Of a stretch of 44,665 bases of DNA, positions 5,729-6,225 are shown one piece after another. The position numbers and the translations under genes are program-made. This DNA comes from Candidatus Pacearchaeota archaeon (GTDB taxonomy: Archaea; Nanobdellota; Nanobdellia; Pacearchaeales; GW2011-AR1). The notes under the pieces are model-generated. The model searched no databases. It was not told where the DNA came from and saw only the letters and a program-made list of their open reading frames with translations. The stretch spans positions 1 to 44,665 of the forward strand of contig VGKP01000006.1 in assembly GCA_016866975.1 (NCBI GenBank), read 5' to 3'. How positions within the stretch are numbered: position 1 is the first letter of the stretch; each line of letters begins with the position of its first letter.

Positions 5729-6225
5729 AGACATAAACTAACGAATACCTGTACTAAAACTTCAACTTTGTTGAAGTTGCCACGGAACGAAGTTCTGTGA
5801 GCATCGCAACTATCAAAATAACGCGGCGTTGTATGCGAGTGATCGCATAAAAAATATAATCAGCTCATATCGGAGAACCCTGTCTAGAGACTGGGAACCC
5901 CGAGGGAAGGTCACGATATAAATCGTGTACCCCTGTAGAGACTTCGATGAGGAACCGTCAATTCCAATGAAAATCGAGAATCACTCAAGAAAGCAGATGA
6001 CTTTCGAGATCTCAGATCTTATGAAGTGATTAAGACGCTGATCCCTACACTAGTGGTTTTTGAAACCCTCAAGATTCTTTGAATCTTGACATACTAGAAA
6101 ACTTTTTTCTAAAAAGTGTTGTAGGTGAAGGTATAGTCCATACAATGAAAATAAATAATCATTGACTAATCTCAAGAATCATAGATTCTTGATGGTTATC
6201 AAGAACAACATGTTCTTGAAATATA
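5729..6225 (+). mobile_element. Group I intron at LSU position 2593 (IA-like, 497 nt), ORF-less, apparent omega-A
   Basis: Exons AAGAACGT / CGCGAGACAG. The guide CGCG-GCGTT (5822-5830) gives P10 and P1. P4 TCGG/CCGA; R GTAGAGACTT 5935; S GGTATAGTCC to 6139; P3 ATCAGC/GCTGAT with an insertion between P7 and P3. Confidence 0.92.

Follow-up and report, generated by a model that had tools for sequence, protein, structure and literature searches.

The 23S rRNA gene in a 44,665-nt stretch of DNA from a Candidatus Pacearchaeota archaeon (the window) is interrupted at position 2593 by an insert that has the fold of a group I intron and has A as its last base, the omega position (A6225). We read this insert as a working IA3-type group I intron of DPANN archaea, belonging to a family in which a large sublineage carries a terminal A, and we put the probability of this reading at roughly three in four. 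A G at the last position counts as near-invariant and as defining for group I introns, and it is assumed by some boundary-finding tools and databases. In the present case, an entire lineage of essential rRNA introns, from archaea with a single rRNA operon, combines a terminal A with a normal guanosine pocket and has switched repeatedly between A and G.

The window opens with an archaeal rRNA operon: the 16S gene at 630-2074, a tRNA gene at 2229-2299, and the 23S gene at 2670-6513. The exon ends and intron elements described below are all on the plus strand. Relatives in this genus bear public names such as Nanoarchaeota or Woesearchaeota archaeon, which makes the host a DPANN archaeon. The archaeal LSU model of Rfam matches 2670-6513, jumping ~500 bases (...AAGAACGU / ACAGUUUG); upstream of the gap the model alignment reads ...GGGUUAAGAACGU, and it picks up again at ACAGUUUG. 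In ~25 intronless relatives, the equivalents of 5728 and 6226 are contiguous and read AACGU-CGYGAGACAG. The bases at the two boundaries differ (T5728 versus A6225 and A5729 versus C6226, with none common to either boundary), so that sliding of the intron boundaries is ruled out and the intron occupies 5729-6225 (497 nt), with A as its last base, as the original prediction had it. Both the LSU model alignment and the intronless relatives place the insertion after E. coli U2593. The 5′ exon thus ends at 5719-5728 (E. coli about 2584-2593), with U5728 as the splice-site U of the U.G wobble, and the 3′ exon starts at 6226-6235 (CGCGAGACAG), with 6226-6229 taking part in P10. Joining of the exons rebuilds helix 93 with its GCGA loop, a further part of the original prediction that the LSU model and the intronless relatives bear out. 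We found one copy of the 3′ part of the 23S gene in this genome (0.8 Mb in 31 contigs, 89% complete) and no open reading frame longer than 41 amino acids within 5729-6225. Because the intron interrupts helix 93, in the peptidyl-transferase center of the only 23S gene found, it must be removed, as had been argued from the window alone, and we infer that this happens by splicing.

The sequence of the insert accommodates a complete group I fold. P1 joins A5724-U5728 to G5826-U5830 through the U5728.G5826 wobble and four Watson-Crick pairs, and it was formed in 49/49 relatives. It is closed by an enlarged loop of 93 nt (5729-5821) that contains hairpins at 5760-5776 and 5781-5799. The internal guide sequence consists of a P10 strand (CGCG, 5822-5825), which pairs with C6226-G6229, where the 3′ exon opens, and a P1 strand (GCGUU, 5826-5830), which sets G5826 opposite U5728. 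P2 is a hairpin with a GUGA loop (5832-5849), with changes on both sides at 7/7 pairs and 98% of cells paired, and the 5′ strand of P3 (5860-5864) pairs with its 3′ strand at 6037-6041, with 4/5 pairs compensatory and 99.6% paired. The P4, P5, P6, and P6a domain (5870-5933) is supported by the alignment of relatives, as is the 3′ strand of P3. J6/7 and the 5′ strand of P7 (GUAGAGACU) lie at 5934-5943 and supply G5940 of the guanosine-binding pair, with A5939 bulged; J8/7 (UGAAGGUAU) and the 3′ strand of P7 (AGUCC) lie at 6126-6139 and supply its partner, C6138. Within P7, G5938 and G5940-U5943 are opposite A6135-C6139, and U5944.U6134 lies beyond. Between P7 and the 3′ strand of P3 (5945-6031) are P7.1 (5945-5976, with a conserved CCGUCA loop) and P7.2 (5979-6031), both of which covary; these are extra helices typical of subgroup IA. 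P8 (6044-6125) has an ~70-nt insertion of small hairpins, with its base 98% paired and 3/4 pairs compensatory. The 5′ strand of P9.0 (AUA, 6140-6142) pairs with the 3′ strand (UAU, 6222-6224), and between them are the P9 hairpin (6143-6164), supported by the alignment of relatives and by folding, and two extra hairpins, P9.1 and P9.2 (6167-6219, fold z-score of −6.0), which are not found in the closest relatives. When folded, the 3′ region adopted P9 and the two extra hairpins and left the P9.0 strands free. The positions that the original prediction had given for P10 and P9.0, and its G-binding and U.U pairs in P7, all proved right on direct reading of the sequence.

Across 49 distinct relatives without open reading frames, standard pairs filled 91.4% of cells, compared with 35 to 39% when the partners were slid, and changes on both sides were present at 49/75 pairs, a number reached in 0/500 shuffles. 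The fold therefore covaries far beyond chance. P7 itself was invariant, and the pocket pair was G-C in 49/49 of these relatives. The MAFFT alignment of the 49 introns misplaced the 3′ strand of the window's P9.0 owing to the tail insertion, and so P9.0 and P10 were counted from sequence anchors. The match to the Rfam model Intron_gpI (RF00028) covered 5795-6154 with a score of 25.9 bits (E = 0.00023 on 901 bases), which does not reach the gathering score of 50; we put this low score down to the many insertions, the general model being weak on IA3 introns that contain them. Nawrocki et al. (2018, PMC6125680) used subgroup models. The insert thus has a P1 with a U.G wobble, a P3-P8 core with a P3/P7 pseudoknot and a P4-P6 domain, and a G-C pocket beside a bulge, and of the usual hallmarks of group I introns it lacks the terminal G, having A6225 in its place.

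We ran a pattern scan (the 3′ strand of P7, 20 to 50 bases, and then the exon) on one genome per prokaryote species. Among the 119 L2593 matches listed, the last base was A in 68, G in 51, and C or U in none; the scan pattern fixed the 3′ strand of P7 and a short 3′ tail, so that 68:51 is a biased count that holds among the matches listed. In the window's own family, the terminal base was A in 7/7 homologous introns (loci L011, L012, L013, L014, L031, and L037, all complete, and a partial copy in genome G033), whereas two introns from other families in the same order, relatives by DNA similarity, end in G. The introns ending in A come from genomes with archaeal names, and all of those that were checked lie in archaeal (DPANN) rRNA genes; those ending in G come from Gammaproteobacteria, CPR and other bacteria, Micrarchaeota, and some Woesearchaeota or Nanoarchaeota. 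Four introns with a terminal A lie in metagenome-assembled genomes labeled bacterial (L050, L068, L076, and L112, named Vogelbacteria, Saccharibacteria, Bacteroidetes, and “bacterium”), but their LSU rRNA is archaeal, as is the SSU rRNA of L112, and these contigs are probably mis-binned DPANN sequences. In one further assembly (locus L033, G033:C22, ~500-1050), the 3′ part of an intronless 23S gene is linked through a run of Ns to the last part of an L2593 intron with a terminal A, after which the exon appears a second time. This contig was probably scaffolded from two strains, only one of which has the intron. Terminal A is a lineage trait. Since it is common to at least 60 related archaeal introns, it is inherited, and the window's intron probably works.

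The history of the last base was followed on a tree of 110 introns from which that base had been removed beforehand. The tree requires 5 changes of the last base, at least 4 of them forced by well-supported branches, compared with ~35 when the labels were shuffled. The window's intron lies inside all-A clades of 7, 34, and 41 introns (starred support values of 100, 96, and 95, respectively), and the 41-row clade is nested in a 45-row all-A group with a support of 91. A few G-ending introns (L100, L118, L040, and L055) are nested among the A-ending ones, and their tails read CAU-U-G compared with CAU-A in their sisters. An additional unpaired base thus separates P9.0 from the last G in these introns, and their reversion to G was therefore more than a plain substitution of the A at the same position. 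Both states persist and interconvert, with purines alone seen at the last position.

We found no compensating change in the pocket, J6/7, or J8/7 that would account for the acceptance of A. The J6/7-P7 string (GUAGAGACU) and J8/7 are alike in the A-ending and G-ending classes and are likewise identical between sister introns that end in A and G. The base after P7 is U in most A-ending introns, which is the source of the U.U pair, and G in most G-ending introns, and it tracks phylogeny rather than the last base. Furthermore, a pattern scan of 401 genomes of the phylum, run there without the canonical pattern as a positive control, returned no non-C pocket partner. Outside the pocket, the two classes differ in their guide sequences: the three junction-side P10 pairs were formed in 64/64 A-ending introns compared with 5/45 G-ending ones, the guide lies a median of 51 nt into the A-ending introns compared with 10 nt in the G-ending ones, and most A-ending introns have an insertion of 40 to 90 nt in the P1 loop. 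A link between terminal A and a strong P10 was not sustained, however, as the tree offers just 4 independent contrasts and P10 is alike in 3 to 4 of them. A strong P10 is at best a permissive background rather than a demonstrated compensation.

The exact position of the 3′ splice site is fixed by two independent helices, both of which show compensatory changes. In 61 distinct A-ending introns, the first position of P9.0 was paired in 61/61, the second in 61/61 (U-A in 32 and C-G in 29), and the third in 55/61 (A-U in 34, U-A in 8, C-G in 7, and G-C in 5); the full three-pair P9.0 was present in 55 introns, whereas 1,000 shuffles averaged 23.7 and never exceeded 33. In P10, the four guide bases 5′ of the wobble G pair with the first bases of the exon, and the three pairs nearest the junction were formed in 60/60 A-ending introns; 36 introns combine a GC guide with a GC exon, and 21 combine an AC guide with a GU exon (CGCG/CGCG and CACG/CGUG). 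Together, P9.0 and P10 place the junction exactly after A6225 and before C6226. A separate pairing is possible nearby: 6210-6220 (AUGUUCUUGAA), on the 3′ side of the final hairpin in the tail, can form 10 to 11 pairs with the end of the 5′ exon at 5719-5728 (UUAAGAACGU), a helix longer than P1, and the 5′ strand of the same hairpin mimics exon sequence. This pairing may be a coincidence of repeat sequence or an alternative that competes with P1.

On this basis, the intron's removal can be pictured in five steps. P1 would present the U5728.G5826 wobble; a free guanosine would then bind in the unchanged P7 pocket (G5940-C6138, with A5939 bulged), and the RNA would be cut after U5728. P9.0 (6140-6142/6222-6224) and a four-pair, G+C-rich P10 (5822-5825/6226-6229), stacked flush on P1, would bring in the 3′ end, and A6225 would substitute for the canonical G, either within the pocket or beside it. 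Finally, U5728 would attack the A6225-C6226 bond, restoring helix 93. The chemistry of these steps, the docking of A in a pocket built for G, and the ability of P9.0 and P10 to make up for weaker binding are all predicted. A change from G to A at the terminal position of the Tetrahymena ribozyme strongly impairs exon ligation. One explanation, which we advance tentatively and which may well prove wrong, is that these introns pick their 3′ splice site mainly through pairing (P9.0, with P10 stacked flush against P1) rather than through specific recognition of a G at the end. The final position would have loosened to accept either purine and would have changed several times while the pocket stayed the same. 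If this is true, these introns would be a natural system that separates the two jobs of the pocket, binding of the cofactor in the first step and binding of the intron end in the second.

The conserved, covarying core and P10 together imply that the intron is removed through its own catalysis. We considered the alternative that removal is not by plain self-splicing, either because a protein helps the second step or because the RNA is only cleaved (5′ cleavage and 3′ hydrolysis), the 23S rRNA then staying in two pieces or being joined by a cellular ligase. A terminal A should bind poorly in a G-C pocket, judging from the Tetrahymena mutants, and some LAGLIDADG proteins act as maturases elsewhere. 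Many of the A-ending relatives contain inserts of 600 to 800 nt that may encode proteins of the LAGLIDADG families (family names from the supplement of PMC6125680). However, the window's intron and many others lack an open reading frame, and the last base is always a purine, suggesting that its recognition persists. P10 is also retained, changing in step with the exon in 60/60 A-ending introns, and we know of no role for P10 except to align the 3′ exon for ligation. We therefore regard a helper or simple cleavage as unlikely.

That the true 3′ splice site follows a nearby G is far less probable. In its favor, a terminal G is almost universal among group I introns, and the exon offers G6227 and G6229, 2 and 4 nt past the junction, while relatives with ...GUA tails have a G just upstream; splicing at such a site would leave the loop of helix 93 slightly altered. 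Intronless relatives, however, have the full AACGU-CGYGAG, and use of G6227 would remove two bases of a conserved peptidyl-transferase helix. P10 covaries with exon positions +1 to +4, P9.0 stops one base short of the junction in 61/61 introns, and some relatives have AUAUA-type tails without any G in the 8 nt upstream. Given the covariation and the intronless relatives, we reject a cryptic G as the end of the intron.

A slightly smaller chance still attaches to splicing by the archaeal tRNA-type endonuclease, with the group I fold as a relic. That enzyme acts at a bulge-helix-bulge motif, in which two 3-nt bulges that contain the splice sites flank a 4-bp helix. A cofold of the two junction regions, taken as the single minimum-energy structure, contained no such motif, and the relatives differ in the bases at the two ends of the intron, whereas conservation, with covariation, extends through the entire catalytic core. 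Introns of the endonuclease type nevertheless make up the majority in archaeal rRNA genes, and they can share a gene with group I introns (PMC6125680). Least credible is a mistake in sequencing or assembly at A6225, which is one base in a 31-contig assembly of metagenome type, or a dead rRNA copy, given the same A in all 7 family homologues and in 68 independent assemblies, the single 23S gene found, and the intact core elements; with dozens of independent assemblies having A, it is very unlikely that reads would show G at 6225.

The working-intron reading places the window's copy in a catalogued family. IA3 introns at LSU/2593 have been listed from Woesearchaeota, Pacearchaeota, and Micrarchaeota (Nawrocki, Jones and Eddy 2018, PMC6125680), and the archaeal members IA3.1 and IA3.4 to IA3.12 share with our intron the insertion site, the P7 strands (GAGACUU / UAGUCC), and the host groups Woesearchaeota and Pacearchaeota. 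The window's intron likewise follows U2593, has P7.1 and P7.2 between P7 and the 3′ strand of P3, and has P7 strands as in the published table. Three catalogued introns, IA3.5 (locus L042), IA3.12 (L106), and IA3.4 (L074), were recovered in our scan, and all of them end in A; the length that we derived for IA3.5, 323 nt, is the same as that published, and the window's intron clusters with IA3.5 and IA3.12 in the tree. The IA3 structure drawn in PMC6125680 (IA3.1, our L056) ends in G, and the last base is never mentioned there, “omega” and “terminal” having 0 matches in the text and supplement. The window's copy differs from the catalogued introns in its 93-nt P1 loop and in the mini-element hairpins of its 3′ tail. 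The intron is therefore a member of a known family, and the terminal A is a widespread variant that is apparently undescribed.

Our literature searches for A-ending group I introns returned nothing beyond Cbu.L1917 of Coxiella burnetii, a natural self-splicing intron that ends in A (Raghavan et al. 2007, J Bacteriol 189:6572, as cited in PMC11270868) and that is assigned to subgroup IB2 (as cited in PMC11019260). The two cases are alike in being natural 23S group I introns without a terminal G, in genes with two group I introns, in small-genome organisms. The Coxiella intron is bacterial, belongs to IB2, is located at site 1917, and represents a single species, whereas the terminal A described here occurs in at least 60 species-level archaeal genomes, with repeated A/G switches, in IA-type introns with P7.1 and P7.2. 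The original prediction had proposed an independent archaeal ribozyme ending in A. Independence from the Coxiella case stands, as the subgroup, site, and domain all differ, but the window's intron is not a one-off.

L2593 introns, at the I-CreI site, are also known from chloroplasts, cyanobacteria, and other bacteria (PMC1995217, PMC11270868). The bacterial L2593 introns share the site and a homologous core, and those from Gammaproteobacteria and CPR align with the archaeal ones and have the same J6/7-P7 and J8/7. All of the bacterial members in our sample end in G, however, and position the guide ~10 nt past the 5′ splice site. They mostly lack the P10 pair next to the junction, which was formed in 15/44 G-ending introns. 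For the Tetrahymena ribozyme, Michel et al. in 1989 and Been and Perrotta in 1991 reportedly completed exon ligation with a terminal A by combining G264A:C311U with G414A. That engineered ribozyme had its pocket converted to an A-U pair so that it would take A; no such joint switch of pocket and terminal base was seen here, the pocket being G-C in 49/49 relatives. One intron database from 2025 describes where introns end as “most frequently, the terminal G.” For annotation of rRNA introns in DPANN archaea, a terminal G should not be required. If these introns splice well, a mismatched end can be accepted in the second step as long as P9.0 and P10 keep it in place, a tolerance that is directly testable with these short natural ribozymes of ~300 nt.

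The extra sequence in the window's intron resembles repeats found elsewhere in the genome. The tail hairpins at 6167-6219, which end seven bases from the 3′ splice site, are 78 to 83% identical to a hairpin-pair module inside mini-elements dispersed on contigs C2, C3, C7, and C13. They are absent from the closest relatives, L011 (399 nt) and L012 (335 nt), so that the tail module was gained recently. The P1 loop (~5757-5806) resembles, in diverged form, the left half of a dispersed hairpin-rich mini-element, one copy of which lies at 7035-7154, and P8 contains a similar hairpin, of CAAGA type, at 6068-6089. In two other Pacearchaeota introns (L077 and L087), an insertion of ~50 nt is located in J3/4, between P3 and P4 (alignment columns about 290 to 338), an unusual place for an extra hairpin. 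The window's 23S gene also contains a second group I intron, L1923 (4557-5098), which is preceded by U4556 and has G5098 as its last base. A single 23S gene thus holds both a G-ending intron (L1923) and an A-ending one (L2593).
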